Assembly: GCA_038866525.1 (NCBI GenBank)
Contig: JAWBZG010000001.1
Coordinates: forward strand, 1,285-65,284
Direction of reading: 5' to 3'
DNA: 64,000 nt
DNA from: Candidatus Bathyarchaeia archaeon
GTDB taxonomy: Archaea; Thermoproteota; Bathyarchaeia; Bathyarchaeales; DTEX01
Shown: positions 7,356 to 35,793 of the stretch, one piece after another
Layout of the letters: each line of letters begins with the position of its first letter
Position numbering within the stretch: position 1 is the stretch's first letter
Position numbers and translations under genes: made by a program
Notes under the pieces: model-generated
What the model was told of the DNA's origin: nothing
Database searches by the model: none
The model's input: the letters and a program-made list of their open reading frames with translations, nothing else

Positions 7356-9269
7356 TTATTCCTTGATTCTTTCAAGCTCCTCTAATATTTTCTCCCTAAG
7401 CATTCTGTTAACTGCTTCTGGTTTAACTCTGCCTCTTAAATCCCTCATTATAATGCCCATTAAAGCGCCAAGCGCCCCCATCCCCCTCTCCGCCACCAAA
7501 TTCCTGTTCTTCTCAAGATATTCCCCTACCAGTCTTTTGAGATCATCTTCCGAGATCATTGTTAATCCAAGTTCCCTTATAGCGTCAACTGGCGTAGCGC
7601 CCTCATGCTTCGCCAGCCACCTCACTATATCTGGAATGGATTCCTTCGAAGTCTTCTCGGAGCCCACTAGCTTAAACATTTCGATTATCTGATCATCCGA
7701 TATAACGTCGAGATTCACTCCCTCCCGCCTCAAAGCTTTAAATGTTTCCGTTAATGTCGCAGCTACAACGGTGGGCGCGACACCGGTTTCTTTAACTATT
7801 GTCTCAAAAAGGTCAATGTAGTCCGAGTCAGAGAGCTGCCTAGCCAACTTCTCATTTATCCTATAGCTGTCCATCAACCTCTTAACAGTTTCTTCCGGGG
7901 GCTCTGGCAGGGACCTCCTCAACCTCTCCAAATAATCTTCGGTGATCTTCACAGGGGGCACGTCTGTTTCCGGATACATTCTCGCGGCTCCGGGTCTAGG
8001 CCTCATATATCTCGTTGTTCCATCAGGATTAGCTGCACGCGTCTCCTCCGGTACACCTCTCAATGCCTCGCGGGCTCTCTCCAGAACAGCTTTAAGAGCG
8101 TCCGTAGCGTTCTCAATCTTATCTGCAACTAGAACAACAGCGTCCTCCTCGGAGGCGCCTACCCGCCGCCTTAACTCACGTATCTCCTCGTCTGAAACAC
8201 CATAGGACCGCAACTCGTCAGTGTGGAGTATACCTCCCACCCTGCCCCAAAACTTTGCCCTATCAGAGAGCTCGCCGCCGAACCTTAAGCCCGGTATAAG
8301 CTCAAAGCTAAGTAAACCTGAAAACTTGGGTAATTTAACAGCAAACACCTTTGCTCCTTGGCTTATAGCTCTTTGCAGCACCCTGCACTCGGTGCTCTTA
8401 AAGACTTCGGTTACTTCGAAGAATTCCTCCCTCAAATCCTCGTCCTTAAGCCCCCGCCTCCTTAATTCATCGCGGATTTTTAGGAGGTTCAGTTGACGCT
8501 GCACTTCATACTCAATAACCTTGGAGATTAATTCGAGCTCCTGAACGCCCTTTATCTCAACTAGGGCTCCTCCCTCAATGGATATATTTAGATCCTGTCT
8601 TATCGTTCCAATGCCGCGTTTAACCCTCCTCGTAGCCCTCAATATCCTGCCTATCGCAAGCGCAACCCTCTCAGCCTCCTCTGGCGTGCTTATAACTGGA
8701 CCAGTTGTAACCTCAACGAGGGGTATGCCCAACCTATCAATCCTGTATCGCACCAGAAGACCCTCTTCACCCATCTTCCTTGCAGCGTCTTCTTCGAGAC
8801 TTACGTGCTGTATTGGTATTATCTTGTTATCGACCTTTATCGAGCCATTTAATGCGACAACGCATGTCCTCTGGAAGCCCGTTGTATTTGATCCATCTAT
8901 GACGATTTTACGCATAACATAAATCTCATCTACAGGCTTAGCGTTCATCATTAGCGCGATTATTAAGGCTATTTCCAGAGCTTCGCGATTAAGCTCATGA
9001 GGCGGCTCCTCATCCATCTCAACGAGGCAAGATGTTCTACTATCAGCCTCATAAATTATCTTCACACCCTTCTGGAACTCGAAATAGGCTGCCGGATCTA
9101 TTTGACCGAGCTCGCTTTGAGTTGGCCTTAGCCTTCGAATGAACAGTATCTCGGGTTCTCCCTTAAATAGCTGAGGGGGACACTTACAGAATAGCTTCTC
9201 ACGCGTTGCGAGCTGCTGATGGCATTCTAAACCAACTTTAAGCCCCAGCTCTTCATAATCTATATTCAC
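7356..9269 (-). CDS. gatE: Glutamyl-tRNA(Gln) amidotransferase subunit E
   Basis: 637 aa. The N-terminal GLKVGLECHQQL, the overall GatB/E-like core with an inserted domain, and a YqeY-like tail are unmistakably GatE. Confidence 0.95.
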   Translation of the reverse strand: MNIDYEELGLKVGLECHQQLATREKLFCKCPPQLFKGEPEILFIRRLRPTQSELGQIDPAAYFEFQKGVKIIYEADSRTSCLVEMDEEPPHELNREALEIALIIALMMNAKPVDEIYVMRKIVIDGSNTTGFQRTCVVALNGSIKVDNKIIPIQHVSLEEDAARKMGEEGLLVRYRIDRLGIPLVEVTTGPVISTPEEAERVALAIGRILRATRRVKRGIGTIRQDLNISIEGGALVEIKGVQELELISKVIEYEVQRQLNLLKIRDELRRRGLKDEDLREEFFEVTEVFKSTECRVLQRAISQGAKVFAVKLPKFSGLLSFELIPGLRFGGELSDRAKFWGRVGGILHTDELRSYGVSDEEIRELRRRVGASEEDAVVLVADKIENATDALKAVLERAREALRGVPEETRAANPDGTTRYMRPRPGAARMYPETDVPPVKITEDYLERLRRSLPEPPEETVKRLMDSYRINEKLARQLSDSDYIDLFETIVKETGVAPTVVAATLTETFKALRREGVNLDVISDDQIIEMFKLVGSEKTSKESIPDIVRWLAKHEGATPVDAIRELGLTMISEDDLKRLVGEYLEKNRNLVAERGMGALGALMGIIMRDLRGRVKPEAVNRMLREKILEELERIKE

Positions 9270-9304
9270 TTCCTAAACCACTCCTTTAAGGCTTAATCAC
9301 AATT

Positions 9305-10645
9305 CTAAATTTTTGGGATTTCTACGGGCTCAACTGTTCTCTCAGAAAATTCGTTTGCGATATTTGTCAACATAAGCCTTTTTACTTCCTCTAGGTCTTT
9401 TGTCTGTGCTAAGCACCACATCATTTTAACTAAGGCGGTTTCAGCAAGCATATCTGCCAGCGGGATTACCCCCATAGCTAGGAGATCTCTACCATTAGAG
9501 TAGACGTTCATGTTCACCCGCCCCCATATGCACTGTGAAGTCATAGCGACAACAACTCCACTCTCAATGGCTCTCTTAATCGCCGGAAAACATTCTCTGC
9601 GGACATGCCCTAATCCCGTCCCCTCAAAAATTATCCCCCTATAGCCTTCTGAAACATGCCAATCAATAATCTTGGGGTCCATGCCTGGATAAAATTTTAT
9701 TAGCGCAACCCTCTCATCAAAGTTTGGCTTCAATATAAGGCTGCGGCCGGGGTCTCTGGGCAGATAATTCTCCACAAGCATGTAAATGTTATTAGCGATA
9801 ACTTTAGCCAGAGGCTTAGCATTTACCGTCTTAAAGGCATCTCTACGGCTGGTGTGACACTTTCTTACTTTTGTCCCTCTATGTAAAACTATAGCTTCAT
9901 CTGACGGTGTCTCATGCATGGCGACAGCCACCTCGGCGAATGGCGCTCTTGAGGCGGCTGAAACCGCACCTATGAGATTGAGGGCTGCGTCGGAGCTGGG
10001 TCTATCCTCAGACCTTTGAGCACCAACCAATATGACCGGGACCGGAAGATTCTGTAGAGCGAAGCTTAGAGCCGCAGCCGAATAACCCATCGTATCAGTC
10101 CCATGGGTTATCACGACGCCTTGAACACCTTTAGCTATATATTTGGCGACAGCTTCAGCCATAGCTGACCAATGCTTCGGAGTTAGATCCTCACTAAAGG
10201 TGCTGAAGAGTATTTCTGCGTCAATGACAGCTATTTCCGACAGTTCTGGAACAATACTGTAAAGATCGCTTGCTGATATAACTGGTCTAACCGCACCAGT
10301 CCTATAATCAACGCGGCTAGCTATCGTTCCACCAGTGCTTAAAATCGCGACTCTCGGCAGACCTATTTTCTGCTCGGGTGGCGGTGGAGGGATAAACGCT
10401 GGCTTTGCTTCTGAAGAGATTTTTTCTATTTTAGTTTCCGGTGTAACTTCAACTCCAATATTGTAGCCAGACTTAATCTTTATCACGATATGTCGGTCAT
10501 CACTGTACTCTGATCTGGGTATCAAAATACCTTCAAAGATATCGCTCCCCCTAACTATGCGTATCAAATCCCCGATCTCGACACCAGATTCTAGTAGAAT
10601 CTTTAGAGCTAGTCCTTTATATCCTATAAGCCTCTCACCCATCAT
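9305..10645 (-). CDS. gatD: Glutamyl-tRNA(Gln) amidotransferase subunit D
   Basis: Asparaginase-type motifs ILSTGGTIAS and ITHGTDTM, with the N-terminal GatD-specific domain. Located directly upstream of gatE. Confidence 0.95.
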   Translation of the reverse strand: MMGERLIGYKGLALKILLESGVEIGDLIRIVRGSDIFEGILIPRSEYSDDRHIVIKIKSGYNIGVEVTPETKIEKISSEAKPAFIPPPPPEQKIGLPRVAILSTGGTIASRVDYRTGAVRPVISASDLYSIVPELSEIAVIDAEILFSTFSEDLTPKHWSAMAEAVAKYIAKGVQGVVITHGTDTMGYSAAALSFALQNLPVPVILVGAQRSEDRPSSDAALNLIGAVSAASRAPFAEVAVAMHETPSDEAIVLHRGTKVRKCHTSRRDAFKTVNAKPLAKVIANNIYMLVENYLPRDPGRSLILKPNFDERVALIKFYPGMDPKIIDWHVSEGYRGIIFEGTGLGHVRRECFPAIKRAIESGVVVAMTSQCIWGRVNMNVYSNGRDLLAMGVIPLADMLAETALVKMMWCLAQTKDLEEVKRLMLTNIANEFSERTVEPVEIPKI

Positions 10646-15600: not shown

Positions 15601-16458
15601 TTAAACCGAGTTGGGCTTCATTCCTCTATTCTTTTCACCGAAGAGGAACGATATTAAGTCGTCATATCTCGTATAGTCCGGTATTATGATGTCCGCGCCA
15701 GCGCCGATAAGTCTCTCCCTCTTTCTCAGGTTTAAACCATGTCTATTAACCTCGTCCGATGCAACTCCAAGCGCTATCGCATCCCTACTTTTCGCGCTCC
15801 TAATCTCAACGGGGCCATCCCCCACAACTAGCAGCTCATCTCCGCTCAACTTATTCTCATCTAGAATTCTCTGTATTATCTTTTCTTTCGCATGCTCTTC
15901 AGTATGATCAAGCGCCCCATATATTCCACCCTTAAAGTACTGCATTATATTTAGGGCTGAAGCTTCTCTTAAAACATATTCATGATCCGTCCCGCTAGCC
16001 AAATACATGATTACGCCACGCCTATGGAGTCCCTCCAGAAAGTCTCTCGCCCCCATAATCATCATTTCATCAGGCTTTATTTCCCCGCTAATTAATGCCT
16101 TAATTCTGTCTCCAATATAGGAGAGCATCCTCTCGTTATATATCCGCTTATATTCAAATGGACTTTTAGGCTCCCTACTTATGCCGTATCGGCGCACTGC
16201 CTCAGCAAGCCACTCCATCTGCTTTATAGTCAACATGCCAGTAGAGTAGTCGATGTATGCTCGAACCTCTGCCTCTATCTCCGGGGTTGGAGGTCTACTA
16301 TCACAGATCATCTCAATCATCATCGAAGCCATAACATTTTCCCACCCCTGCCTAATAATGGATATTGTTCCATCAAAATCTATCAACGCATACTTAATTT
16401 TACCGAGCCGCAGCTCAACTGTAGGATTAACTATCTCCATCCATAAGCTCACGGCCAC
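15601..16458 (-). CDS. HAD superfamily hydrolase (probable sugar-phosphate phosphatase)
   Basis: Motif I LIDFDGTIS and motif IV VVGDGPVEIRSAK. Overlaps the upstream kinase gene by 10 nt. Confidence 0.7.
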   Translation of the reverse strand: MAVSLWMEIVNPTVELRLGKIKYALIDFDGTISIIRQGWENVMASMMIEMICDSRPPTPEIEAEVRAYIDYSTGMLTIKQMEWLAEAVRRYGISREPKSPFEYKRIYNERMLSYIGDRIKALISGEIKPDEMMIMGARDFLEGLHRRGVIMYLASGTDHEYVLREASALNIMQYFKGGIYGALDHTEEHAKEKIIQRILDENKLSGDELLVVGDGPVEIRSAKSRDAIALGVASDEVNRHGLNLRKRERLIGAGADIIIPDYTRYDDLISFLFGEKNRGMKPNSV

Positions 16459-17495
16459 TCATCACCCTTAGATATTTCATCAAATTTATCAAGAATCTCT
16501 TTCGGGGAGGCTGTTCCAGTAATATTCAATTTCTTGAGAATAACGCTGGCAGCTATGTTGGCTATGATTCCAGCTTCAAGCGGACTTGCCCCGGCGGCTA
16601 AACTTGCTCCAATAGCCGATATAAAGGTATCACCGGCCCCTACTGGGTCAATGGGAGGTTTCGTTGGGGCTGCGGGCAAGTGACTATGCCCTTCTTCATC
16701 TATTAGGAGAGCTCCTTTCTCGCCTAAAGTTATGTAGACTGGGCGGTTCGCTCTCTTGAAAAGTTCCCTTCCCATAATTACCAGCTCGTCTATCTCAACC
16801 TCTGAGGGTTCTCTAAACGGATACAAAGCCTTTACAGCCTCAATCTTATTAGGTTTCAAAACCATGTTCTTAAAGAGCCCTATCCTCTCCCTAGAATTCA
16901 CAACAAAAACTTTTTCAGGATTTTCACCCGCAAGATCTATGAGAGACTGCCTTACATAATCGCTTATTACCCCATTTTTACTCATCTGATCCTCCACGAT
17001 TACTGCGTTAACCACGCTAATTAAGTCTTCAATATTATCTATGAGATGCTCCTCAAGATCGCTTGAGATTGGTTTAAGGTTTATGAAGTCGAGCCTAGAA
17101 TCCTCCTGCTGAGAGTCGAAACCGCATAGGATTGGCTTAATGTAAGATGGTGTAACCCTATCGGGCGATTGGATCATGTACTCGGTTCTCACACCTATGT
17201 CTTTCAGCCGCTCAACTAATATCTGACCGCGCCAATCTTCTCCAATAACTGTAACCGCGTAAACGTTCCTTACACCTAGATCCCTCAGATTCCACGATAT
17301 ATTTCCAGAAGCTCCTGGAGAATATATCTCCCTAACTATTGGACGCGTGTAGCGGGGTGTTTCGCGGGAAAGCTCCGACATGGTCATATCAGCATACCAG
17401 TAGACGTCGAGGGCAAAGTCCCCGACGACAATGGCGCTTAGATCCTTGAAGGATTCAAGTATCTCTACAAGTCTAGAGCGCTTAAGCCTACCCAT
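16449..17495 (-). CDS. PfkB-family sugar(-phosphate) kinase, HldE/RfaE domain-I-like
   Basis: N-terminal VVGDFALDVYWYAD...RETP resembles the RfaE kinase pattern GDxMLDxYW...SPEAP. The C-terminal PfkB signature DPVGAGDTFISA is present. Met17 (MGRLKRS) at 17495 avoids overlap with the upstream gene. Confidence 0.8.
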   Translation of the reverse strand: MGRLKRSRLVEILESFKDLSAIVVGDFALDVYWYADMTMSELSRETPRYTRPIVREIYSPGASGNISWNLRDLGVRNVYAVTVIGEDWRGQILVERLKDIGVRTEYMIQSPDRVTPSYIKPILCGFDSQQEDSRLDFINLKPISSDLEEHLIDNIEDLISVVNAVIVEDQMSKNGVISDYVRQSLIDLAGENPEKVFVVNSRERIGLFKNMVLKPNKIEAVKALYPFREPSEVEIDELVIMGRELFKRANRPVYITLGEKGALLIDEEGHSHLPAAPTKPPIDPVGAGDTFISAIGASLAAGASPLEAGIIANIAASVILKKLNITGTASPKEILDKFDEISKGDEWP

Positions 17496-19161
17496 CCCGG
17501 ATTCTCCTGATGAGAGAAACCTCAAGCATCTCGCAGAGGGCATGATAAATAATTGAATGCATCTCCTGCACGCGGCTTGTTTCTGATGCAGGAACCTTTA
17601 TCGCTATATCAGCTACCTCAGAAAGTCTGCCGCCGCTTTCACCGGTCAACGCTATAACAGTTAATCCTAGGGCTTTAGCTGTCACCGCGGCGTAGAAGAC
17701 GTTTTCAGCGTTTCCGCTAGTGCTTATGCCGAGTAAAACATCCCCATGTCTCGCAAGAACATATAGTTCCTGAGCGAAAGCCATGTTCCTTGTCGGATTA
17801 TCGTTCTCAACAGCGCTCGTAAGCGAGTGGTTTGCACCCAAAACTATTGCACGTAGTCCCTCCTCCAAGCTGTCAGCTATAAGCCCGCCCAACGGCAAAT
17901 CATTAAACATCTTCCTTCTATGAGGAGGGATCGGCCTCTTCATTTTAAACGATTTTAAGAGCTCAGCCGATATATGCAAGGCGTCCGCGAAGCTTCCACC
18001 GTTACCGCAGATGAAGAGTGAGCCACCGGTCTCAAAGCATCTGTTTAAGGCTCTATAGGCTTTAATTAAATCCCCCAGTAAATGCCTTAGATGCGGATTT
18101 TCCTCCATAAATCTTTTGGCTATATCCTCCACTTCAGGATAGTTTTGAGCGATTTCCTTCAAGTGTAATTCCGGCGAATGTACTAGTGATGCTTTGCTTG
18201 GCAGGTTAAATGTTTCCCCACCAATTTTACTTAAAATCAAGTGGTAAAGATTTGGAATGGTCACGACGTGATCTCCTGTCACATGGAAACCAACACCCCC
18301 AGTCGATGTAGGTCTCTGAACTATATTTTTTAATGGGCGATAATAGTAGTCTGGGTCATCCTTACTCCTCCGGCGCACATAATCATCTATCGGCTTAAGG
18401 TCAAAATTCGCCGCCGTAAAATTTGTAACCCTAAATCCCAGATTTCTAGCGATCGATATCGCTTTGAGAAAGACTTCCGGCCCTATAACAGCTGAGCCGA
18501 AGTTTAAGAAGACGCCGTCTTCCAGCTGAGTTACTGTCTCCACGAAGGTTTTGAAGTCTCTTCCGCTCGCCTCACCTAGAACAGCGAAGTTGCATTTGGG
18601 GTGCTGATGGATAATGTCCGTCCCCAAAGCTATGTGAACCGTAAATGGTATCCTAAGTTTATAGGCATGGTATAGAACACTGTACTCCTTAAACTTAAAT
18701 TCCTCATTTTCAGCAATCATTTTCCCAAGCGATTCCCCATATCCTAGACCCTCATGAACGCCACGCTGCACCGCTAAATTTATCAGGCGACCGGTCTCCT
18801 CAGCCATCCCAAAAGTTCCATCCTCAATACTTGTCGCAACATCCTCGCTCGTCTCACCTATTAACGCTATCTCAAAATCATGTATTGTCACGGCGCCATT
18901 AGAGGCTATGTGGGTTATAACACCTCTCCTCATAAGATCTATTATGATTAGGGATAAACCCGACTTAATAACGTGAGCGCCCATCATCCATATTACGTGG
19001 GCGCCATTTCTGCGCGCTCTAACTATGCTCTCCGCAATTTTATCCAAGTCTAGGTTTCTGAAGGGTTTGGGAGGAGACATTGGATCTATCATGTCTTTAA
19101 GCGTGACCAGATTCTTCCTTTGGAGCAACGGATAAGTTTTAATCTTAGTGAAATCCAGCAT
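17488..19161 (-). CDS. Fusion protein: N-terminal deoxyhypusine-synthase-like domain plus C-terminal SIS (GmhA-like sugar-phosphate isomerase) domain
   Basis: C-terminal motifs FICGNGGSFADALHISAEL, GDVLLGISTSGNAENV, ALTGESGG and RVQEMHSIIYH match phosphoheptose-isomerase-type SIS. The N-terminal roughly 350 aa (GAHVIKSGLSLIIIDLMRRGVITHIASNGAVTIHDFE ... LRIPFTVHIALGTD ... FGSAVIGPE) follows the DHS family layout. Confidence 0.75.
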   Translation of the reverse strand: MLDFTKIKTYPLLQRKNLVTLKDMIDPMSPPKPFRNLDLDKIAESIVRARRNGAHVIWMMGAHVIKSGLSLIIIDLMRRGVITHIASNGAVTIHDFEIALIGETSEDVATSIEDGTFGMAEETGRLINLAVQRGVHEGLGYGESLGKMIAENEEFKFKEYSVLYHAYKLRIPFTVHIALGTDIIHQHPKCNFAVLGEASGRDFKTFVETVTQLEDGVFLNFGSAVIGPEVFLKAISIARNLGFRVTNFTAANFDLKPIDDYVRRRSKDDPDYYYRPLKNIVQRPTSTGGVGFHVTGDHVVTIPNLYHLILSKIGGETFNLPSKASLVHSPELHLKEIAQNYPEVEDIAKRFMEENPHLRHLLGDLIKAYRALNRCFETGGSLFICGNGGSFADALHISAELLKSFKMKRPIPPHRRKMFNDLPLGGLIADSLEEGLRAIVLGANHSLTSAVENDNPTRNMAFAQELYVLARHGDVLLGISTSGNAENVFYAAVTAKALGLTVIALTGESGGRLSEVADIAIKVPASETSRVQEMHSIIYHALCEMLEVSLIRRIRDG

Positions 19162-19300
19162 TTATTAAGCCTCCTTCCCAGCGTCACAATATTTTTAGTT
19201 TTTCTTAGGCAAATATTTATTGTTTTGCAGCGGGGGCAATCTTAGGGAGCTATTCATAAGTTTCCGTAAAAAGATAATTGGGAGATTTATTTGAGATATC

Positions 19301-19750
19301 TTGGTGGGAGGGAAAGTGGAGCCAACTAAGAGAAGTTATCGTTTAAAAATTGAGGGTAGTTCCAGCTTTAAGGAGATGGTGCGGCGGGCTCTTAAACTTG
19401 TTAAGGCTGCTGGCTACTATAACTTCCTGAAAACATATATTCGCTGTATAAAGGAGATTGACGGTTTTACGCAGCTAAGGGTTTCCGAGGCAACGATATG
19501 GGCGAATAAATACACTGTCGAGAACCCTGTTGACGCCGCCAGCAGGTTTATACAAGAAGCATACTATATGAAGATGCAGGTTGAGATGGAGCATTTGGAG
19601 TCTTATCATGAGGGCATGCTTGAACTTAAGTCGTTTGAGAAGCGCATAGAGTTCCTTAAGAAATTGAGGGAAAGGAGTCGAAAACCGGAAATTAAGAGCG
19701 CCTGCGATAAACTATTGAAAATGTGGGATGAGAGCCTACTAGTATATTGA
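19301..19750 (+). CDS. Hypothetical protein
   Basis: 149 aa helical ORF with a TTG start. No family recognised. Confidence 0.4.
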   Translation: MVGGKVEPTKRSYRLKIEGSSSFKEMVRRALKLVKAAGYYNFLKTYIRCIKEIDGFTQLRVSEATIWANKYTVENPVDAASRFIQEAYYMKMQVEMEHLESYHEGMLELKSFEKRIEFLKKLRERSRKPEIKSACDKLLKMWDESLLVY

Positions 19751-20037: not shown

Positions 20038-21162
20038 TTAATAGAGCAGATGGATGTTCCCTATATTCACCCTCCTAAGGTATTTTTTAGCCACATTATA
20101 GCACTCATAAGCTTGCCTCCTGCTGGTGGTTGGTAGGTCACTCATAATATACTGCGGATAGAACGCGAGCAAGGTATATGGGATGTCTGGATCTATGCTT
20201 GCAATAAACTTAGCTATCTCCTCAACCTCTAAGGAATCTACATACCCTGGGACGAGAAGGGTACTTGCAGTTAAAACTGGAACCTCCCGCCTCTCCCCAA
20301 AGTACTCTTCACCGATAATTTTGAAGTTTTCGAAGGTAGGCTTATTCGAGGTCCCGCATAAAGCCTTATAGAGGTTCTCGTTCCACGCCTTCAAATCATA
20401 CTTTACGATGCCGCCGCTTCTAAACGATAGCTCAGCTGCCTCTATAGCAAAACTTTTACTCATGTTTCCGTTTGTTTCCCAGCATATTCTCAATATGCGT
20501 TTCTCATCTTCAGCTTTTCTCAGCGCTATCTCGCTAGTTTTAAGCGCATGAGGCATTTGAACCGATGGGTCTCCGCCAAAAAAGCATATGCATGAAACCC
20601 TACGGTTAACTTTGTCAGCCAGCTCCTCGCAGCTTAAATAGGGACTTAGTTTTTGAGACAAGCTCCTATAGTGCCAATTTTGGCAGAAGAGACAGTCGAG
20701 ACTGCATGCGCCGTAGAAGACGGCGAGGTTCATATAACCGGTTTCAGCGGTTGGTTTGTAGGCGTACTTTGGGTAACCAGCTCCCGTGCAGCCGGGGCAG
20801 AACCACCATGCAACGCAGTTTGTTGGCAGCGGATCATAATACCATTCCAGAACGCCCTTCTCCGGCGTTCCACCTAAACGTACAAGAGCGCCGTCAGCAT
20901 TATATGAGAGACCGCAAAATCCCTTTTCTCCAGGAGGGATAATGCATTCATTCCCGCATATACCGCACTTGACACCCTTAATGTTTTTTGGCACATTTGA
21001 TGGTAAATTAAACGATCTACGTGAAGCTTCACGCACTCTACTAACAGCGTTGAGAGATTCTTCCGGCCGCTCCCTTATGCACTTTAAACATACACCGAGA
21101 TTACCGGAGATTAAGGGTGAGCTGGAGCCACATACTGAGCATTTTCCCACGCCTTCCACCAA
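20038..21162 (-). CDS. Radical SAM enzyme, PflA/AmmeMemoRadiSam-like, with N-terminal Cys clusters
   Basis: CxxxCxxC motif in GACSLDCLFCQNW. N-terminal CSVCG...CLKC and CGICGNECIIPPGEKGFCGL. Confidence 0.8.
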   Translation of the reverse strand: MVEGVGKCSVCGSSSPLISGNLGVCLKCIRERPEESLNAVSRVREASRRSFNLPSNVPKNIKGVKCGICGNECIIPPGEKGFCGLSYNADGALVRLGGTPEKGVLEWYYDPLPTNCVAWWFCPGCTGAGYPKYAYKPTAETGYMNLAVFYGACSLDCLFCQNWHYRSLSQKLSPYLSCEELADKVNRRVSCICFFGGDPSVQMPHALKTSEIALRKAEDEKRILRICWETNGNMSKSFAIEAAELSFRSGGIVKYDLKAWNENLYKALCGTSNKPTFENFKIIGEEYFGERREVPVLTASTLLVPGYVDSLEVEEIAKFIASIDPDIPYTLLAFYPQYIMSDLPTTSRRQAYECYNVAKKYLRRVNIGNIHLLY

Positions 21163-21267: not shown

Positions 21268-22431
21268 TCATGATATCGAGAGCTTCTCATTTATCTCCTT
21301 CTGGTACTCTTCAACAATCAAATCCTCGACATCTTTAACCCTAACAGGCTTATTCAACTTAGCCGACTCATAGAAGCCTAAAGGTATAGCCATGTCTTTG
21401 TACGCTTCAACAGCGTCGACTTCAGGTCTCCTCTTATTGATCACCGAGTCGTAGAAATCATATAGTTCGATGGCGAACGTGTCGGTTATCCCCCTCGGAA
21501 ATAGTTTCTCCAGAGTTTCTTTGGGAAGATTTCTTCGCATCTCCTCTATAAGCGTATCCATGGGTCTAGTTTCAATCTTACCATATTCTGTTTCTAGGTG
21601 AATGCCATCGTCCGAAAGAGAACCCTTTGAACCACATATAGTATGCATATAGACTCTTTTAGCTGGAGTTGCCCTTGTCCAGATCCACTGGGAGAAAACG
21701 TTCCCCTCATACCTTATTATTGCGATCGTCATGTCGTCAACGGTCACCTTCACGCCTTCCTTAACTGGGTCAAATGTATGGCACATAGCGAAAACCTCTA
21801 CAGCTTCCCTGTTTAGCTGATATCTGTCTAGATCTGCCCAATGTACACCACCATCAAAGACCCAGCTTCCACCGGCAGAAAACTTGTCCTCCCTCCAGCC
21901 CCATGGTTTGGGACCCCAGCTCATAGCGGACCATAAAACAATACGTGGCTCCCCAATTAGCCCCTCTCTTACAGCCCACCAAAAAGCCCTCTCCTTCGGC
22001 GCCCTCCTATAATTCTCGGCGACAGCCAGCACCCTATTATGCTTCGATGCCTTACCAATAATATATTTCGCAGCCCTCATAGTTATCGCTAACGGCTTCT
22101 CAATAATCACATGCAGCCCCCTCTCCAAACATTGGGATGCCACTATGTGATGTAAGTTATGCGGCAAACATATGTCGACTGCGTCGAGGCTCTCATCTTT
22201 TAGCATCCTCTCTATATCCGTGTAAACTCTTGGTTTTGAATCCTGAAAATAGTAGATTAAATTGGCTTTCTCCTCAGCGTTTTTCTCAACGACATCGCAG
22301 ACCGCTTTCACATTGAAGACTTTTAGCCCCAGCGTGCTTAAAATACGGAACCCTGCAACATGGGCGTTAGATATCCCGCCACATCCGATTAAAGCAATAT
22401 TTATTTTATCCATGGGTTTAAAATTAACCAT
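21268..22431 (-). CDS. Gfo/Idh/MocA family oxidoreductase
   Basis: N-terminal Rossmann motif INIALIGCGGISNAH and EKPLA in IIEKPLAITM. Confidence 0.8.
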   Translation of the reverse strand: MVNFKPMDKINIALIGCGGISNAHVAGFRILSTLGLKVFNVKAVCDVVEKNAEEKANLIYYFQDSKPRVYTDIERMLKDESLDAVDICLPHNLHHIVASQCLERGLHVIIEKPLAITMRAAKYIIGKASKHNRVLAVAENYRRAPKERAFWWAVREGLIGEPRIVLWSAMSWGPKPWGWREDKFSAGGSWVFDGGVHWADLDRYQLNREAVEVFAMCHTFDPVKEGVKVTVDDMTIAIIRYEGNVFSQWIWTRATPAKRVYMHTICGSKGSLSDDGIHLETEYGKIETRPMDTLIEEMRRNLPKETLEKLFPRGITDTFAIELYDFYDSVINKRRPEVDAVEAYKDMAIPLGFYESAKLNKPVRVKDVEDLIVEEYQKEINEKLSIS

Positions 22432-22557
22432 TAAGTCGATTTAAGAGTTACGGATGAAAGAATTCCATGGAAGGAAAACATTGGTTGATGAGGGGTTTTG
22501 AAAAAGTAAAGATTTAAATTTTCAGCCATAATCTTGATAGAAGGTGGGTGTGCTTCT

Positions 22558-22788
22558 ATGGGTAAGTTGGAAGATGAAATTTTGAACCTGCTGAAGAGAT
22601 CCGAGCCCTTAACCCTAATGGAGATATCTGAAAGATTAAATAAGACACCTAAAGCTGTGTTTAGATCTCTGCGCAAACTCTTTGAGAAAGGTATAGTTGG
22701 CTGCGACATAAAAACGAAAAGATACTACTTAGAGAAAGACTATGAAGCGCAGGAAGAGGAAGAAGCTGTTGATATAGATAACATTTAG
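22558..22788 (+). CDS. Small winged-helix transcriptional regulator
   Basis: MGKLEDEILNLLKRSEPLTLMEISERLNKTPKAVFRSLRKLFEKGIV with an acidic tail. The ATG at 22558 is preferred over the longer TTG ORF starting at 22534. Confidence 0.5.
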   Translation: MGKLEDEILNLLKRSEPLTLMEISERLNKTPKAVFRSLRKLFEKGIVGCDIKTKRYYLEKDYEAQEEEEAVDIDNI

Positions 22789-22831
22789 TTCACAAAGACA
22801 TTTATACCGTTTCAACAGTAAATATTTTCTG

Positions 22832-23815
22832 TTGAAAAATGGAGGGTTTAATTTGAAGATAGGAATCTTCACAATACTATTTAACGAGCTGAGCCTGGAA
22901 AAAGTCTTAGAGTACGTTTCGAAGCTCGGCTATGAGGCTGTAGAGATAGCTGCCTGGAAAGGAAGTAATCACATAGATATAGAGAAGATTCTTAGTGGGG
23001 GCGCAACCGAATATAAAAGAACCGTGGAGAAATATGGTCTAATAATCTCAGCGTTAAGCAATCATCTTGAGGGGCAGCTTGTTTTAGGGCCTCACGATGA
23101 ATCAACAGATGAATGGTTTAAGGGCTCTCCGGAGGAGAAGGTTAAGTATGGTATGGAGCGGATGAAGAAAACAGCTGAAGCCGCGGCGGCACTAGATGTA
23201 CCGGTGGTAAACGGTTTCATCGGAGCCCCAAACTGGGGCGCATGGTATATCTTTCCACCAGCATATGAGAAGATTTTTGAGAGGGGTTTTGAGGTCTTCG
23301 CTGAGCGTTGGGGTGAAATCCTAGATCACTTCGCAGCTCATGGCGTAAAGTTTGCGCATGAGGTCCACCCGCAGGAGCAGGCATATAATATTGAAACGGC
23401 TGAACGCGCAATTAAAGCCATAAATGGTAAGAAAGAGTTCGGCTTTAACTTCGACCCAAGCCATCTAGTTTGGCAAGGTATCGATCCAGTAATATTCATC
23501 AAAAAATTTGGCGATAGGATTTATCATGCGCATGCAAAGGATGCCGAGCTCGTCAAAGAGAACCTTCCAATATCCGGTTGCATACCCACCGGTCCGTGGC
23601 GTAGACCGGATAGAGGTTTTAGGTTCCGGGTTGTCGGCTGGGGCGACATAAACTGGAAGAGGATACTGACCGCCTTTGTAGAAGTTGGATATGATTATGT
23701 GTTAAGCTATGAGCATGAGGATCCGGTTATGAGCCGAGAAGACGGCTGCGAGAAATGCATAGCTTTCTTAAAGCCTCTAATTATTAAAGCTCCGTTGGAG
23801 AAGGTTTGGTGGTGA
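22832..23815 (+). CDS. Sugar phosphate isomerase/epimerase (xylose isomerase-like TIM barrel)
   Basis: Family pattern with LGYEAVEI, HEVHPQE, NFDPSHL and HAKD. Confidence 0.8.
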   Translation: MKNGGFNLKIGIFTILFNELSLEKVLEYVSKLGYEAVEIAAWKGSNHIDIEKILSGGATEYKRTVEKYGLIISALSNHLEGQLVLGPHDESTDEWFKGSPEEKVKYGMERMKKTAEAAAALDVPVVNGFIGAPNWGAWYIFPPAYEKIFERGFEVFAERWGEILDHFAAHGVKFAHEVHPQEQAYNIETAERAIKAINGKKEFGFNFDPSHLVWQGIDPVIFIKKFGDRIYHAHAKDAELVKENLPISGCIPTGPWRRPDRGFRFRVVGWGDINWKRILTAFVEVGYDYVLSYEHEDPVMSREDGCEKCIAFLKPLIIKAPLEKVWW

Positions 23816-23822
23816 GGGTCGA

Positions 23823-25025
23823 ATGGCGGAGGAGAAGGAAGTAGGTTTCGTAAGAATGGGTAAGGTTGTAGGTGAATTAAAGGAGATCAAAGAGATCGGC
23901 GTTGGCTTACTTGGCTACGCATTTATGGGTAAAGCCCATGCAAACGCGTATATAAAGATGCCAATATTCTTCTATCCTCCACCAGCGAAACCAAGGTTGG
24001 TGGCTATATTCGGTAGAACTGAGAGGGCGGTCGCTGAGGCTGCTAGAAGATACGGTTTCGAGAAATACTATACTGATTGGAGAGCGCTAATTAAAGATGA
24101 AAATGTTGAGCTAGTCGATAATGGATTACCGAACAACATGCATGCTCCTCCAATCATAGAAGCCGCTGAGAGCGGGAAACATGTCCTCTGCGAGAAGCCT
24201 CTGGCAACAACTGTGAAAGAGGCGGAAGAAATGTATAAGGCGGCTGAGAAAGCCGGAGTTAAACATATGACAGCATTCAACTACCGTTTTGTTCCAGCAA
24301 TAAGGCTAGCTAAAAAACTTATTGAAGAGGGCTATATTGGAAAGATTCTGCAGTTTAGAGCAGTCTACCTACAGGAGTGGATTATGGATCCCAACTTCCC
24401 GCTAGTTTGGAGGCTTCGCAAAGATATAGCTGGGGCGGGAGCTTTAGGAGACTTGGGTTCACATATAATAGATTTGGCCAGGTTCCTTGTCGGCGAAATA
24501 TCCTCAGTCTGCGGTATGACGGAAACATTCATTAAGGAGCGCCCACTGCCAGAAGACCCTTCAAAGAAGGGGCAAGTTGATGTCGACGATGTCTTCATCT
24601 CGCTCGTTAGATTTAAGAGTGGAGCAATAGGCAGCCTAGAGGCCTCAAGGTTCTGCGCTGGTAGGAAAAACTACCAGAGGATAGAGATCCACGGTACAGA
24701 GGGCACGATATGCTTCAACCTCGAGAGGCTAAATGAGCTGGAAATTTACTCGAGGAAAGACCCCGCGGACAGAATGGGCTTCAGGAATATCCTAGTTACG
24801 GAGACGGTGCATCCATACATCGAATACTGGTGGCCTCATGGTCACATAATTGGGTGGGAGCACACTTTCGTCCATGAAATCTATCATTTCATAGATTGCA
24901 TAGTTAATGATAAGCCGGTTGCACCTCTAGGCGCAACCTTCTATGACGGACTAAAGTGTCAAGAGATTATGGAGGCGATATTAGAGTCGGCGGAGAAGGG
25001 CAGATGGATGAATGTCCCCGAATAA
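23823..25025 (+). CDS. Gfo/Idh/MocA family oxidoreductase
   Basis: GVGLLGYAFMGKAHANAY and HVLCEKPLA, with the C-terminal dimerisation domain. Confidence 0.85.
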   Translation: MAEEKEVGFVRMGKVVGELKEIKEIGVGLLGYAFMGKAHANAYIKMPIFFYPPPAKPRLVAIFGRTERAVAEAARRYGFEKYYTDWRALIKDENVELVDNGLPNNMHAPPIIEAAESGKHVLCEKPLATTVKEAEEMYKAAEKAGVKHMTAFNYRFVPAIRLAKKLIEEGYIGKILQFRAVYLQEWIMDPNFPLVWRLRKDIAGAGALGDLGSHIIDLARFLVGEISSVCGMTETFIKERPLPEDPSKKGQVDVDDVFISLVRFKSGAIGSLEASRFCAGRKNYQRIEIHGTEGTICFNLERLNELEIYSRKDPADRMGFRNILVTETVHPYIEYWWPHGHIIGWEHTFVHEIYHFIDCIVNDKPVAPLGATFYDGLKCQEIMEAILESAEKGRWMNVPE

Positions 25026-25036
25026 TTTGCTCCTAA

Positions 25037-28000
25037 GTGGGTGAAAAGCCGCCTATGGGTGGTGATTCAGGCATATTTGAAGAGGTCATTAAAAGTCTAA
25101 AGGAAAGACATGAAAGTTTAATTAAATACAGAAGTCAACTCTCCTGGAAATTTTATCAGGGCGAAGCCCCAGAAGCCTACGATCCTAACTTTGATGACTC
25201 ACAATGGCAGCAGATTAACCTGCCAACAATATTTGATGCGCGGAGAGGCGGAGGGTGGTTTAGATGCAAAGTATCTGTTCCAAAAGAAGTTGAGGGAATA
25301 GAGGTTTCAGGATCCACTGTAAAACTTTATTCTTCAGCGATACTCAATAAAAGCGAACTATTCATTAATGGAGAACGTGTTTTAAGCGCAGACTACTGGT
25401 TAGAGCTCAGACCAAGAATAATTCTGGACGAGAAAGTAGAGCCTGGAAGAACATACGTTATAGCGGTACACGTATTTCCAAAACATGAACCGGTTGAAGT
25501 GCCGCAGTTTTACGTAACTTACAGCAATGTTGAGAAGGTTGCATTTGAGATAGAATCTTTCATTGAGGAAATAAGGTTCGCAAGAACCTTAAATAGAGAT
25601 TTAACGGAAAAAATTTTGGAAGATTTTGACCTCAGTGCCATTAAAGGAAGCTTCCGACGCCTGTTAGATGAGATCGATAGGATTAGAATGAAGCTTTCAC
25701 CTCTTTCTACCGAAGCTAAAAAGTTTAAGGTTCACCTGGTAGCTCACGCCCATATAGACATGAACTGGCTTTGGCCCTGGGAGGACACCGTTAACACTAT
25801 TAAGAGCACTTTTTCCACAATGGTGGACTTAATGGATAAGTACAGCGACTTTCATTTCTCCCAGAGCCAGGCGATAACCTATAAGGTTGTTGAGGAGAAT
25901 TTCCCAGACCTATTTGAGAGGATAAGGCGGCATGTTAATAGAGGGAACTGGGATATAACCGCATCTATGTGGGTTGAAGCAGATTTAAACATGGCTGGTA
26001 CAGAGGCGCTGCTAAGACAATTTCTATACGCAAAACATTATATCCGCGATAAATTCGGCGTGGAGCCGGAAGTCTGCTGGGAGCCGGATACATTCGGACA
26101 CATATGGACTCTACCACAAATACTTAGGAAATTCGGTGTAAAATACTATTATTTTATGCGTTGCAGTAAAGGTCACCCTGTATTCTGGTGGGAGGGGCCT
26201 GATGGCTCAAGGGTCTTAGCCTTCACAAGCGTCTACATTAATTTTGTGGCGCCAAGAAATATTGTGGATCTAGCCCTAGACCTTTATGAGCGTTATGGTC
26301 TTAAAACCAGCATGTTTGTTTACGGAGCGGGAGATCACGGTGGTGGAGCTACAATAGATGATATTGAGAACGCGTATGAGATGCGGAAAAAGCCCACTCT
26401 GCCGGATATAGTTTTCAGTTCGACGCATGAATTCTTTAATGAATTGAGGAGGGAGATTGAGGAGCGAGATTTATTCATACCAGTTATTAGCGATGAGCTG
26501 CAGTTTACCTTTGATGGATGCTATACTACGCATGGAGACATAAAGAAGTACAATAGGCTATGCGAATCTATGCTAATCGACTCTGAGAAAATGCATGTTA
26601 TAACGGGATCCAGCGGCGGAAACTCCTTTAAAAAGTTATGGTTAAATGTTCTCTTCAATCAATTTCACGATATTCTCGATGGTAGCGGGAGCTCTGAAGC
26701 ATACGTGTATCCGAGGGAGCTCTACCGTGAGACGGTTGAGGCTGCTAAAGACCTCATAAATGCAGCTGTGGATAGATTTTCTAGAAAGATAAAGTTTTCG
26801 AGGGACGGTATACCTATAATCGTCTTCAACACTCTCTCTTGGGATAGAGTGGATGTCGTGAGAGTGAAGGTTCCAAGGCATCTACTTCCGAAGAATGCTG
26901 TTGCGATATCCTATGATGGTAAGGAAAGGCGGCCAATTCAAATTCATGAAGACGAAATATTGTTCTTGGCTTGCGCGCCCTCAATGGGCTATAAAGTCTA
27001 CTATATAGTTGAGGGCGATCGCTCCGATGAAACCATCTTATCAGCTCACCACAACCTATTGGAGAACTACTACTTTAAGATTGAGGTAAACAATGTTTCA
27101 GGAACGATAAGAACCTTATATGATAAGGTAAATGAGAGGTTTGTACTTAAGGAAGAACGGTATCCCCACACTAAACCCGTATTCAGCAATTTAATGCAGG
27201 TCTTATATGAGATGCCGCATCCAATGTCCGCGTGGATAATTGGACCAATATCTCGTGTAGAGAACCTTGTGGAGGGAGCTAAAATGGAGATTGTGGAAGA
27301 AGGTCCCGTGAGAGCTACGATTAAGATTTCTTGGAAGCATAGGAGCTCTGCGATCACCCAATATATAAGCCTCTATGATGGCTTACCTCGAATAGATTTC
27401 CGCATGTTAATCGACTGGCAGGAGGTAGCAGATGATAAAACTGATGCCCCAATGCTAAAAGTTTCCTACACACCTATACTTAACAGATCTAGAGCTACGT
27501 TTGAGATACCTTTCGGATACATTGAAAGAGTCCCGGATGGGACAGAATACCCTGCATTGAGGTGGGTTGATTTATCCGATGGCGAATATGGCTTAAGCAT
27601 CATAAGCACATGCAAACATGGGTTCGATGTGAAAGGTAATACCGTTAGAATGACTCTTGTTAGAACCAGCTATAGTCCCGATCCTAAACCCGATCAAGGA
27701 GTTCATGAAGTAACGTATGCTCTCTATCCGCATAAAGGCGATTGGAGAAGGGCGCTAACATTTAGAGTAGGGTGGGAATTGAACCATCCGCTGATAGCGT
27801 ACGTTGTTCTAAATCGAGGGGGAAACGGCAGCGTAGGTGAAGAAATGAGCCTCATTAATATTAAGCCAAGCAACATAGTTGTTTCCTGCTTTAAGGAGGC
27901 TGAGAAAGAAAGTGGATTAATACTTAGGTTTTACGACGCCTCCGGTGAAGGCGGTTCGGCGGAAATACAATTTAACTTTGATGTGAAGGAGGTTTACGAA

Positions 28001-28108
28001 GCAGACTTAATGGAGGAACCACTAAGACCTTTAGAAATTCTTGACAATAAAATTAAGTTGGAGATCAGACCATTTGAGATAAAGACCCTACTGATTAAAC
28101 AGTCTTGA
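25037..28108 (+). CDS. Alpha-mannosidase, glycoside hydrolase family 38
   Basis: HAHIDMNWLW metal/active-site motif, DTFGH, and a size of 1023 aa. No signal peptide is evident. Confidence 0.9.
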   Translation: MGEKPPMGGDSGIFEEVIKSLKERHESLIKYRSQLSWKFYQGEAPEAYDPNFDDSQWQQINLPTIFDARRGGGWFRCKVSVPKEVEGIEVSGSTVKLYSSAILNKSELFINGERVLSADYWLELRPRIILDEKVEPGRTYVIAVHVFPKHEPVEVPQFYVTYSNVEKVAFEIESFIEEIRFARTLNRDLTEKILEDFDLSAIKGSFRRLLDEIDRIRMKLSPLSTEAKKFKVHLVAHAHIDMNWLWPWEDTVNTIKSTFSTMVDLMDKYSDFHFSQSQAITYKVVEENFPDLFERIRRHVNRGNWDITASMWVEADLNMAGTEALLRQFLYAKHYIRDKFGVEPEVCWEPDTFGHIWTLPQILRKFGVKYYYFMRCSKGHPVFWWEGPDGSRVLAFTSVYINFVAPRNIVDLALDLYERYGLKTSMFVYGAGDHGGGATIDDIENAYEMRKKPTLPDIVFSSTHEFFNELRREIEERDLFIPVISDELQFTFDGCYTTHGDIKKYNRLCESMLIDSEKMHVITGSSGGNSFKKLWLNVLFNQFHDILDGSGSSEAYVYPRELYRETVEAAKDLINAAVDRFSRKIKFSRDGIPIIVFNTLSWDRVDVVRVKVPRHLLPKNAVAISYDGKERRPIQIHEDEILFLACAPSMGYKVYYIVEGDRSDETILSAHHNLLENYYFKIEVNNVSGTIRTLYDKVNERFVLKEERYPHTKPVFSNLMQVLYEMPHPMSAWIIGPISRVENLVEGAKMEIVEEGPVRATIKISWKHRSSAITQYISLYDGLPRIDFRMLIDWQEVADDKTDAPMLKVSYTPILNRSRATFEIPFGYIERVPDGTEYPALRWVDLSDGEYGLSIISTCKHGFDVKGNTVRMTLVRTSYSPDPKPDQGVHEVTYALYPHKGDWRRALTFRVGWELNHPLIAYVVLNRGGNGSVGEEMSLINIKPSNIVVSCFKEAEKESGLILRFYDASGEGGSAEIQFNFDVKEVYEADLMEEPLRPLEILDNKIKLEIRPFEIKTLLIKQS

Positions 28109-35499: not shown

Positions 35500-35513
35500 T
35501 AAATTCCCCTCCA

Positions 35514-35774: not shown

Positions 35775-35793
35775 TCTTAATCCACCTCCTTAA

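Follow-up and report, generated by a model that had tools for sequence, protein, structure and literature searches.

The GSU2086 protein family as a component of heptose operons and its fusion to a GmhA-type isomerase in a Bathyarchaeia genome

The 64-kb window analyzed here is a stretch of a Candidatus Bathyarchaeia genome (GenBank assembly GCA_038866525.1, contig JAWBZG010000001.1, positions 1,285 to 65,284), and all coordinates given below are positions in that window unless a locus is named. On its minus strand, a gene at 17488-19161 encodes a 557-amino-acid (aa) protein that joins an N-terminal domain, hereafter the N-domain, to a GmhA-type SIS isomerase domain, and it is followed by genes for a PfkB kinase and a HAD hydrolase. 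The N-domain belongs to the GSU2086 family (NCBIfam NF052581), which carries no assigned function in NCBIfam. Operon structures and gene fusions show that the GSU2086 family is an integral, widely conserved, and previously unrecognized component of heptose operons. The locus in the window is a conserved variant of the heptose-phosphate pathway (GmhA/HldE kinase/GmhB), and the chances are about even that it works as a three-gene, four-activity heptose-phosphate module.

The window N-domain scores 420.5 bits against NF052581 (cutoff, 250 bits), with residues 2 to 307 covering profile positions 2 to 300/301. The N-domain of a Desulfuromonas heptose operon scores 421.6 bits, equal to the window copy, and the same chemistry is therefore expected of both. 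In a transposon sequencing (Tn-seq) study of Geobacter sulfurreducens, the adjacent genes hldE (GSU2085), GSU2086, and gmhA (GSU2087) gave fitness defects of -3.1, -3.2, and -3.7, respectively. A literature search found no other paper mentioning GSU2086, and searches on deoxyhypusine synthase (DHS)-like proteins, archaea, a Geobacter epimerase, and heptose catabolism or salvage returned nothing relevant to the family. The operon of Geobacter metallireducens (L088) has the order gmhA, N-domain gene, hldE (kinase plus nucleotidyltransferase), and gmhB, with the gmhA stop codon overlapped by the start of the N-domain gene. That of Desulfuromonas (L089) runs gmhA, N-domain gene, hldE, and a GT9 heptosyltransferase gene, with gmhB farther along. 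In a deltaproteobacterial metagenome-assembled genome (MAG) (L082) and a relative (L090), the genes for BamA, Skp, LpxD, FabZ, and LpxA are followed by those for the N-domain protein and HldE and, farther on, by those for LpxB, MsbA, WaaA, and LpxK, after which L090 also encodes GmhB and GT9. In a KSB1 bacterium (L085), the N-domain gene lies near genes for GT9, MsbA, and LpxL. The HldE proteins of these loci exceed their NCBIfam cutoff, as do the GmhB proteins of Geobacter and Desulfuromonas, and the GmhB of L090 scores 176.3 bits against a cutoff of 178. A short-chain dehydrogenase/reductase (SDR) gene beside gmhA in Desulfuromonas was considered as a candidate HldD and rejected, being TviC-like (315 bits versus 112 bits for HldD).

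The same association was found in a metagenome scan seeded with the Geobacter type, which gave 80 loci, many on short contigs. GmhA is encoded immediately upstream of the N-domain in 37 of the 80, and the loci also hold RfaE-II-type nucleotidyltransferases (24 loci), HldE kinases (17 loci), GT9 (8 loci), and GmhB (6 loci). With Escherichia coli HldD as the reference, an HldD-type SDR was found in none of these 80 loci, and other SDR types were detected by the same method. Altogether, no HldD epimerase was found beside the N-domain in about 170 loci, in a search limited to about 10 kb around the gene. Several metagenome loci (L112, L113, L115, L121, L123, L126, and L129) have a standalone N-domain gene followed by a separate RfaE-II-type nucleotidyltransferase gene, with no HldE-type kinase detected nearby, which suggests a further arrangement of the pathway, perhaps with another kinase.

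Gene fusions tie the family to the same set of enzymes. Among 150 family representatives, the N-domain is fused to an SIS domain in six, lying N-terminal to it in three and C-terminal in three; to a cytidylyltransferase-like nucleotidyltransferase, in both orders, in five; to a capped HAD domain in two; to a DUF89 phosphatase plus a nucleotidyltransferase in two; and to a GmhB-like HAD domain and an HldE-I-like kinase in one each. It is fused to itself in tandem in at least three, and kinase-HAD fusions were also found. The covalent partners of the N-domain thus cover all four canonical activities (isomerase, kinase, phosphatase, and nucleotidyltransferase), and HldD is never a partner or a neighbor. 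The protein with DUF89 phosphatase, RfaE-II-like nucleotidyltransferase, and N-domain is of Woesearchaeota type (826 aa, 19 cluster members). On metagenome contig Ga0209343_10001525 (L091:327-11427), its gene follows one for HldE and precedes genes for a split transketolase (a transketolase and a transketolase/transaldolase fusion), GT9, and two STT3/AglB proteins. This cluster contains two nucleotidyltransferase domains and suggests that DPANN archaea attach heptose to N-glycans and have a dedicated sedoheptulose-7-phosphate supply.

The GSU2086 family is large and widely distributed. A scan of 1.84 billion cluster representatives retrieved 2335 clusters (50% identity) at an E value of ≤1e-3 and 496 at ≤1e-30, most of which are standalone proteins of 300 to 340 aa, and at least 588 GTDB species genomes encode a member. 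The lineages include Bathyarchaeia, Brockarchaeota, Nitrososphaerota, Chloroflexota, Planctomycetota, Actinomycetes, and many Clostridia, as well as Poribacteria, KSB1, Nitrospirae, Geobacter, Desulfuromonas, Woesearchaeota, and Neobacillus, and identities of 43% to 59% are held across archaea, Clostridia, and Desulfuromonadota. Members are nearly always annotated as "hypothetical protein," "SIS domain-containing protein," or, wrongly, "deoxyhypusine synthase." The initial annotation of the window regarded the fusion as unusual, but the N-domain/SIS architecture is not rare: among the matches listed, more than 120 clusters of full-length relatives of the 557-aa protein share 55% to 99% identity with it, and the closest of these database proteins (99% identical) is from a Candidatus Bathyarchaeia MAG. 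Some standalone members in Poribacteria and other lineages (L081, L083/L084, L086, and L087) have no heptose genes around them and repeatedly lie near a PIN toxin gene and one for a CYTH-domain protein; the family may also act outside heptose operons, or the partner genes may be dispersed. A protein of 723 aa (P0127; CAK4815455.1) from an assembly of the oomycete Aphanomyces euteiches joins a GSU2086 domain to the start of a GH38 domain, and it could stem from bacterial contamination, from neighboring genes merged in the gene model, or from horizontal transfer.

The N-terminal region had been described as following the DHS layout and interpreted as a diverged paralogue of a second, bona fide DHS of the window that was recruited to sugar-phosphate chemistry. 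The second gene, at 56268-57221, does encode a true DHS, with 375 bits to PF01916, 323 bits to PDB entry 8put, and both GGGISKHH and SWGK. The N-domain itself stays below the Pfam cutoff of 27 bits for ArgZ-like_C_2nd (26.9 bits) and for PF01916 DS (16.9 bits), below the cutoff of TIGR00321 (17.4 bits versus 304), and below the equivalog cutoff of TIGR00300 (23.6 bits versus 410.8). The DHS layout holds at the level of the fold. An AlphaFold2 model of the N-domain built with 30 homologues (predicted local distance difference test [pLDDT] score, 86.8; predicted template modeling [pTM] score, 0.89) was compared with the PDB by Foldseek, and the matches included AgrE/ArgZ (E value, 1.8e-9), 3c2q (4e-8), and the DHS 8put (6e-8), with a probability of 1.00. 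Over all matches, E values ranged from 2e-9 to 1e-5, template modeling (TM) scores were about 0.5, and identities were 12% to 18%, and the DHS structures matched were archaeal, human, and trypanosomal. The N-domain is thus predicted by modeling to have a DHS-like/LOR-SDH-like Rossmann fold. No solved structure of the GSU2086 family was found in the PDB with either the single sequence or the family profile.

By sequence profile, LOR/SDH cyclodeaminases are slightly closer to the family than DHS is. A profile built from 85 diverse members matches ArgZ at an E value of 3.6e-7 (ArgZ/AgrE, 4e-7 to 3e-6; ArgZ/AgrE/3c2q, 4e-7 to 3e-5), whereas its matches to DHS are weak (0.003 to 0.02). The segment matched in ArgZ follows the first two beta-strands and reads G-x-x-V-I-x-x-G ... 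A-x-x-H-D-x-E-x-A-x-x-G, and the pattern that the N-domain shares there with the LOR/SDH domain (ArgZ/AgrE C-terminal, TIGR00300; 6juy, 6lrg, and 3c2q) is G-x-x-V-I-x-x-G ... N-(G)-A-x-x-x-H-D-x-E-x-A-x-x-G. This domain, the best structural and profile match of the N-domain, has a dinucleotide-binding Rossmann-like fold that serves transient oxidation. However, only about 65 of its residues align with the N-domain (27 to 33 bits), the N-domain has no amino acid metabolism context, and its substrate is presumably a sugar phosphate instead of ornithine. The resemblance to DHS (PF01916) lies in the overall fold (Foldseek E values of 6e-8 to 1e-5; TM, about 0.5) and in the first two nucleotide-binding loop motifs, but the N-domain family is common among bacteria, and its genomic links are to heptose genes instead of eIF5A. 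Counterparts of the DHS catalytic motifs GGGxxKHH and SWGK were not found in the N-domain, which has no WGK motif and has NFGSAVIGPE at the analogous beta-strand exit, an equivalence drawn from secondary structure. The hhalign comparison of the N-domain with the DHS of the window was nonsignificant (probability, 0.65%). The N-domain therefore represents an old separate family that is common in bacteria and lies slightly nearer to the LOR/SDH cyclodeaminases than to the DHS proteins; it is no DHS paralogue of recent origin. Of the recruitment idea, the DHS-paralogue origin did not survive, whereas the link to heptose chemistry is stronger than the window sequence by itself could show. Standalone homologues are encoded between gmhA and hldE in genuine ADP-heptose operons, and fusions to each of four canonical enzymes exist.

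About 40 positions are conserved in ≥90% of the 85 diverse members, including H63, K66, H94, D95, E97, E106, E122, H176, D202, E229, K233, D254, R275, and R283. This pattern is typical of an active site and argues that the family consists of enzymes. The characterized enzymes with the modeled fold (DHS, ArgZ/AgrE) all keep a nicotinamide dinucleotide bound as a prosthetic group and use it in cycles of oxidation, rearrangement, and reduction, and the N-domain is, judging from its model, probably a nicotinamide-cofactor-dependent enzyme as well. Such an enzyme could carry out a redox-neutral, cofactor-mediated epimerization of the GmhA product, likeliest at C6, converting d,d-heptose-7-phosphate to l,d-heptose-7-phosphate and thereby doing the job of HldD at the sugar-phosphate level. 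The proposal that the N-domain is a cofactor-dependent, redox-neutral epimerase of heptose-7-phosphate, probably acting at C6, is a tentative one. It is based on the bound nicotinamide dinucleotide used by members of the fold, on the association of the N-domain, which is tightest with GmhA (adjacency, overlap, and fusion in both orders), and on the absence of HldD around the gene. The canonical heptose pathway ends with HldD, an NAD+-dependent C-6'' epimerase (PMC10948575). The analogy between the two is functional and hypothetical, in that both would be nicotinamide-cofactor heptose enzymes working by transient oxidation. HldD differs in having an SDR fold instead of a DHS-like fold and in acting on ADP-l-glycero-d-manno-heptose, whereas the tight coupling of the N-domain to GmhA suggests heptose-7-phosphate.

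The cofactor could also be nickel-pincer adenine dinucleotide (NPAD) in place of NAD, although this is very improbable. The nearest relatives detectable by sequence are LOR/SDH-type cyclodeaminases, NCBIfam names TIGR00300 "nickel-pincer nucleotide-dependent," the family has several invariant His residues, and an NPAD-dependent ornithine cyclodeaminase was recently reported (Desguin 2025, as cited in PMC13524815). In contrast, PDB entry 6lrg is titled as a ternary complex of AgrE with ornithine and NAD+, so that an ArgZ/AgrE homologue has been crystallized with NAD+, and a motif scan of the window and 80 related loci, itself a weak test, did not find genes for LarB, LarC, or LarE. The GSU2086 family is also spread over many more genomes than one would predict for Lar-dependent enzymes.

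An activity other than epimerization is rather unlikely in our estimation. The N-domain might catalyze anomerization, another redox or elimination reaction on a heptose phosphate, or a reaction on an ADP-sugar, or it might be a noncatalytic nucleotide-sugar-binding subunit with a scaffold or feedback role. ADP-heptose resembles the ADP-ribose part of NAD, and fusions to the first (SIS) and last (nucleotidyltransferase) enzymes are about equally frequent, which is unusual for a single pathway step. The tandem N-domains, the DHS catalytic residues that are not kept, and the many standalone copies in unrelated "orphan" contexts also fit such roles. A noncatalytic function is at odds with the active-site-like conservation pattern, with the 43% to 59% identity maintained between distant lineages, and with the fact that all characterized relatives of the fold are enzymes.

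The fusion gene lies in a compact operon of three translationally coupled genes. The initial annotation had placed three overlapping or abutting minus-strand genes here, and these open reading frames (ORFs), at 17488-19161 (557 aa), 16449-17543 (PfkB kinase; 364 aa as the longest ORF), and 15601-16458 (HAD hydrolase; 285 aa), were all recovered together with the motifs it quoted (CGNGGSFADALH, ISTSGNAENV, RVQEMH, and VVGDFALDVYW). Within the fusion gene, 18232..19161 encodes the N-domain (aa 1 to ~310), as delimited by the NF052581 match, the AlphaFold2 model, and Foldseek. The stretch at 18082..18231 encodes a linker (aa ~311 to 360) with poorly conserved alignment columns, low pLDDT at the end of the model, and no domain match, and 17488..18081 encodes the SIS domain (aa ~361 to 557) and the stop codon. 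The kinase ORF has an internal ATG (M17, position 17495) that overlaps the TAG of the fusion gene by 8 nucleotides (nt) and has AGGAG upstream; it is the probable true start, because it is preceded by this AGGAG and gives a protein of 348 aa, the usual length of homologues (335 to 355 aa). The start of the HAD gene is overlapped by the kinase stop by 10 nt. The ATG of the fusion gene is preceded by a GGAGG ribosome-binding site, 7 to 11 nt before it, and AT-rich TATA-like boxes lie in the intergenic region (19162..19300, minus strand), which from its sequence is the probable promoter of the operon. Counts from a sigma-70 promoter and terminator scan were at or below the shuffle expectation, the sigma-70 model being uninformative for an archaeal host.

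The C-terminal ~195 aa of the fusion protein are a GmhA-type SIS domain, as had been proposed. This domain scores 62 bits for SIS_2 and 136.4 bits for gmhA (TIGR00441), against less than 40 bits for other SIS families, and all of its strong matches in the PDB, at about 100 bits, are GmhA phosphoheptose isomerases. The gmhA score is below the equivalog cutoff of 209.45, a value that GmhA proteins from the heptose operons of Geobacter and Desulfuromonas, at 201 to 206, also narrowly miss. In HMMER alignments to GmhA structures (1tk9, 5by2, and 2xbl), GNGGS, H-x-x-x-E, ISTSGN, and Q-E-x-H...H are conserved, and the SIS half carries an insertion of ~25 aa relative to the solved structures. The conserved residues (GNGGS...H-x-x-x-E, the S-T-S-G phosphate loop, and Q-E-x-H...H) are presumably the catalytic residues and zinc ligands of GmhA.

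The kinase is classed by sequence as a monofunctional PfkB protein of the HldE-domain-I (RfaE-like) subfamily, in keeping with the earlier assignment. PfkB (89 bits) is the sole domain of the 348- to 364-aa protein, which has no nucleotidyltransferase domain such as rfaE_dom_II (TIGR02199); its best NCBIfam family is rfaE_dom_I (TIGR02198; 158.7 bits, under the cutoff of 345), against 58 bits for ribokinase, and its best PDB match is the heptose-7-phosphate kinase HldA (4e84). Genuine HldE proteins score 381 to 403 bits on TIGR02198. Across 45 kinases from related loci, 34 of the 57 columns that are invariant in five HldE kinase domains are conserved at ≥80% and 6 hold another conserved residue, with an identity of ~28%. 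The third gene encodes a HAD protein (PF00702 Hydrolase, 48 bits; HAD_2, 37 bits) that, as had been noted, is not of the GmhB type. Its best NCBIfam matches are generic (PRK13222; E value, 3e-4), no match to GmhB/HAD-IIIA (NF006506/TIGR00213) with an E value of <0.1 was found, and only a weak HAD-IIIC match appeared, whereas genuine GmhB proteins of N-domain operons score 176 to 202 bits on the GmhB family model. The spacing of ~120 aa between motif I (DFDGT) and motif II would fit a large cap insert. A PDB search for this protein turned up no close structure. No heptose nucleotidyltransferase was found in the 64-kb window, which agrees with the initial annotation. The sole CTP_transf_like ORF (181-648) was considered for this role and rejected, as it encodes phosphopantetheine adenylyltransferase (NF001985; 184 bits versus a cutoff of 104).

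These domain calls support the relation of the isomerase, kinase, and phosphatase to the logic of the GmhA/HldE/GmhB pathway. The SIS domain keeps the GmhA residues, HldE domain I is the closest kinase family, the HAD gene follows the kinase gene in a coupled operon, and Desulfuromonadota and other bacteria have the N-domain family within genuine operons of this pathway. The window differs in having no adenylyltransferase domain or gene, no HldD at the locus, and a capped HAD protein in place of GmhB/HAD-IIIA. In addition, neither its SIS domain nor its kinase reaches the equivalog cutoff, an extra domain of ~310 aa is fused to the isomerase, and the context is sugar utilization instead of lipopolysaccharide (LPS) or glycan assembly.

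The three genes are conserved as a unit beyond the window. In a sample of the 80 genome loci most similar to the window N-domain, the N-domain gene was callable in 77, and genes on the same strand within three genes of it were counted. A monofunctional kinase is present in 49 of the 77 loci, a capped HAD protein in 41, and an SIS domain in 36 (28 of them as a fusion); kinase and HAD occur together in 31, all three in 20, and none in 10. The HAD gene stands beside the kinase gene in those 31 loci and elsewhere is fused to the kinase or to the N-domain. The gene order is N-domain(+SIS), kinase, and HAD in Archaea and Chloroflexota and HAD, N-domain, and kinase in Clostridia. N-domains of these trio loci cluster apart from the LPS and orphan types and are 43% to 52% identical to the Geobacter type. 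The archaeal N-domains group with those of Chloroflexota, which implies interdomain transfer of the module. A nucleotidyltransferase motif was found within 10 kb in 1 of the 80 loci, whereas every HldE control was detected, and homology searches over the same distance found nucleotidyltransferase, GmhB (G. metallireducens query, phmmer), GT9, and HldD each in 0 of 80.

Sugar-utilization genes surround these modules. Glycoside hydrolases are neighbors in 24 of the trio loci (GH38 in 8 of them), and other neighboring hydrolases are DUF5054, MGH1-like/GH63, rhamnosidase-like, and DUF4838 proteins. ROK proteins occur in 17 loci, sugar transporters in 18, and Gfo/Idh/MocA oxidoreductases in 12, and 43 of the 59 loci of ≥12 kb have at least one hydrolase, ROK, or sugar transport gene. 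GH38 is encoded directly upstream of the module in the related Bathyarchaeia MAGs L001 and L003. In the cultured bacillotal species Neobacillus ginsengisoli (JAUSTW010000005.1; L092:1025-13916), the module consists of SIS, a tandem N-domain protein (679 aa), PfkB, and HAD and ends an operon. In addition to a GntR regulator and an ABC sugar importer, that operon encodes an AraA/FucI-like isomerase, a RhaM mutarotase, and a ROK kinase. YhhN and Exo_endo_phos neighbors in Clostridia were rejected as functional partners, as they were judged to reflect synteny among related Acutalibacteraceae genomes.

In the window, a Gfo/Idh/MocA oxidoreductase (21268-22431, minus strand), a small winged helix-turn-helix regulator of ArsR/MarR type (22534-22788), a xylose-isomerase-like TIM-barrel protein (22832-23815), a second Gfo/Idh/MocA protein (23823-25025), and a GH38 alpha-mannosidase of 1023 aa (25037-28108) are all encoded within 9 kb of the module, and 21268-28108 looks like a unit for glycoside oxidation and cleavage or mannoside utilization. 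Between this cluster and the module lies a gene for a radical-SAM protein of 374 aa with a Cys-rich N-terminal region (20038-21162, minus strand). A 149-aa ORF divergent from the operon (19301-19750, plus strand) has zero Pfam matches and may be a regulator or not a gene. The whole window is rich in glycan metabolism, with DUF2961, a UxuA-like mannonate dehydratase, a GH29 alpha-l-fucosidase, two GT4 proteins, and GH57 encoded at 30526-31623, 33632-34684, and 42655-50483, and a GalT-like HIT nucleotidyltransferase at 42655-43719. Archaeal housekeeping genes, which confirm the host type, were recognized by eye at 7356-10645 and 34768-37583 (judging from N-terminal sequences, probable GatE/GatD-like ORFs and ribosomal proteins L2, L4, and L3), as was an HdrA-like ORF at 61305-63740.

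The mannosidase neighbors raise the possibility of a hexose module, in which the SIS domain would be a phosphomannose isomerase and the kinase and HAD protein would act on mannose-6-phosphate, mannose-1,6-bisphosphate, and mannose-1-phosphate, with mannose supplied by GH38 or mannosylglycerate-hydrolase-like enzymes. GH38 alpha-mannosidases and MGH1-like hydrolases recur as neighbors, the SIS domain and the kinase are both under the heptose-specific equivalog cutoffs, and HldE has been assayed with beta-d-mannose-1-phosphate as a substrate (PMC10948575), so that manno-hexose analogues may be handled. We consider a hexose module improbable, because genuine ADP-heptose operons, which act on a heptose, conserve the N-domain just as well, because heptose enzymes are the best matches by wide margins (gmhA, 136 versus <40 bits; rfaE_dom_I, 159 bits versus 58 bits for ribokinase), and because mannose catabolism requires only a kinase and an isomerase.

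If the substrate is a heptose, the module could run in either direction. In the biosynthetic direction, sedoheptulose-7-phosphate would be converted to heptose-7-phosphate by the SIS domain, modified by the N-domain, phosphorylated to heptose-1,7-bisphosphate by the kinase, and dephosphorylated to heptose-1-phosphate by the HAD protein, with a nucleotidyltransferase and glycosyltransferases encoded elsewhere and heptosylation of an archaeal S-layer or N-glycans as the outcome. The gene order (isomerase/N-domain, kinase, and phosphatase) is the canonical order of steps, the HldE-like sugar-phosphate-binding positions are kept in the kinase, and the window N-domain matches NF052581 as well as members of true ADP-heptose operons do. 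In addition, a complete biosynthetic cluster with GT9 and AglB exists in Woesearchaeota, and the window itself encodes two GT4 proteins and the GalT-like HIT nucleotidyltransferase 25 to 30 kb away. However, 79 to 80 of the 80 trio loci have no nucleotidyltransferase, GT9, or GmhB within 10 kb, the recurrent neighbors are hydrolases, ROK proteins, importers, and GntR/ROK regulators, the HAD protein is from a subfamily other than that of GmhB, and the kinase and SIS domain score far under the equivalog cutoffs, whereas the Geobacter enzymes attain them or fall just short. A dedicated biosynthetic role is therefore possible but not what we would expect, and, in view of the sugar-utilization neighborhoods, it is doubtful that the trio makes a nucleotide-heptose precursor.

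Salvage or utilization, at about an even chance, is the likeliest direction of the window module, ahead of dedicated nucleotide-heptose biosynthesis. This reading draws on the absence of nucleotidyltransferase, GmhB, and heptosyltransferase from the window type and on its recurrence near glycosidases, ROK proteins, and sugar importers. The module would link a manno-configured heptose or heptose phosphate, released or imported via the products of neighboring genes, to sedoheptulose-7-phosphate. The PfkB protein would be an HldE-type sugar-phosphate kinase and the HAD protein would remove or move phosphate; more speculatively, the two may shift phosphate between O1 and O7, the reverse of the HldE/GmhB direction. 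Taken together, the proposition that the N-domain family is a new class that epimerizes heptose-7-phosphate with a nicotinamide or nickel-pincer cofactor and that the window module is the core of a heptose salvage or catabolic route is unlikely to hold in full. Several points weigh against the proposed roles of the N-domain and the module. For the N-domain, cofactor binding rests on the fold and on two aligned loop motifs after beta-1 and beta-2, the catalytic Lys and His motifs of DHS have no counterpart, polarity could account for the Tn-seq phenotype of GSU2086, and the absence of HldD covers ~10 kb around a gene whose pathway often has HldD encoded elsewhere. Nucleotidyltransferase fusions, being as frequent as SIS fusions, fit action on a nucleotide sugar or noncatalytic binding of an ADP-sugar equally well. 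For salvage, a pair of kinase and HAD protein is atypical of catabolism, and the kinase retains and even gains basic residues, which fits a phosphorylated substrate as in biosynthesis. Furthermore, neighbors vary between lineages, so that the glycosidase association could be loose, and the 80 trio loci, picked by similarity to the window, are a biased sample.

ADP-heptose and its precursors build the inner core of LPS, are targets for antibiotic adjuvants, and act as agonists of innate immunity. The heptose pathway, comprising GmhA, HldE, GmhB, and HldD, has been regarded as fully known. The existence of a fifth family that keeps its place in the operons, occurs in thousands of genomes, and is repeatedly fused to the canonical enzymes implies an unrecognized step or an alternative route to the l,d-epimer in large parts of the bacteria and archaea. 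If the proposed epimerase function is correct, many bacteria and archaea would have an HldD-independent route to l,d-heptose, and the GSU2086 family would extend the small DHS/LOR-SDH fold class from amine to sugar-phosphate chemistry. Neobacillus ginsengisoli, a cultured host with a clean operon, makes the question of the substrate experimentally tractable. The version lacking a nucleotidyltransferase points to microbial recycling or catabolism of heptose, of which no description was found in the literature searched, and would bear on the turnover of carbon from Gram-negative necromass in sediments and guts. If the salvage reading is correct, the fused module would form the core of a heptose salvage or catabolic pathway, the first to be described, through which anaerobic heterotrophs such as Bathyarchaeia, Anaerolineae, gut Clostridia, and Neobacillus would feed the heptose of LPS and glycans into sedoheptulose-7-phosphate.

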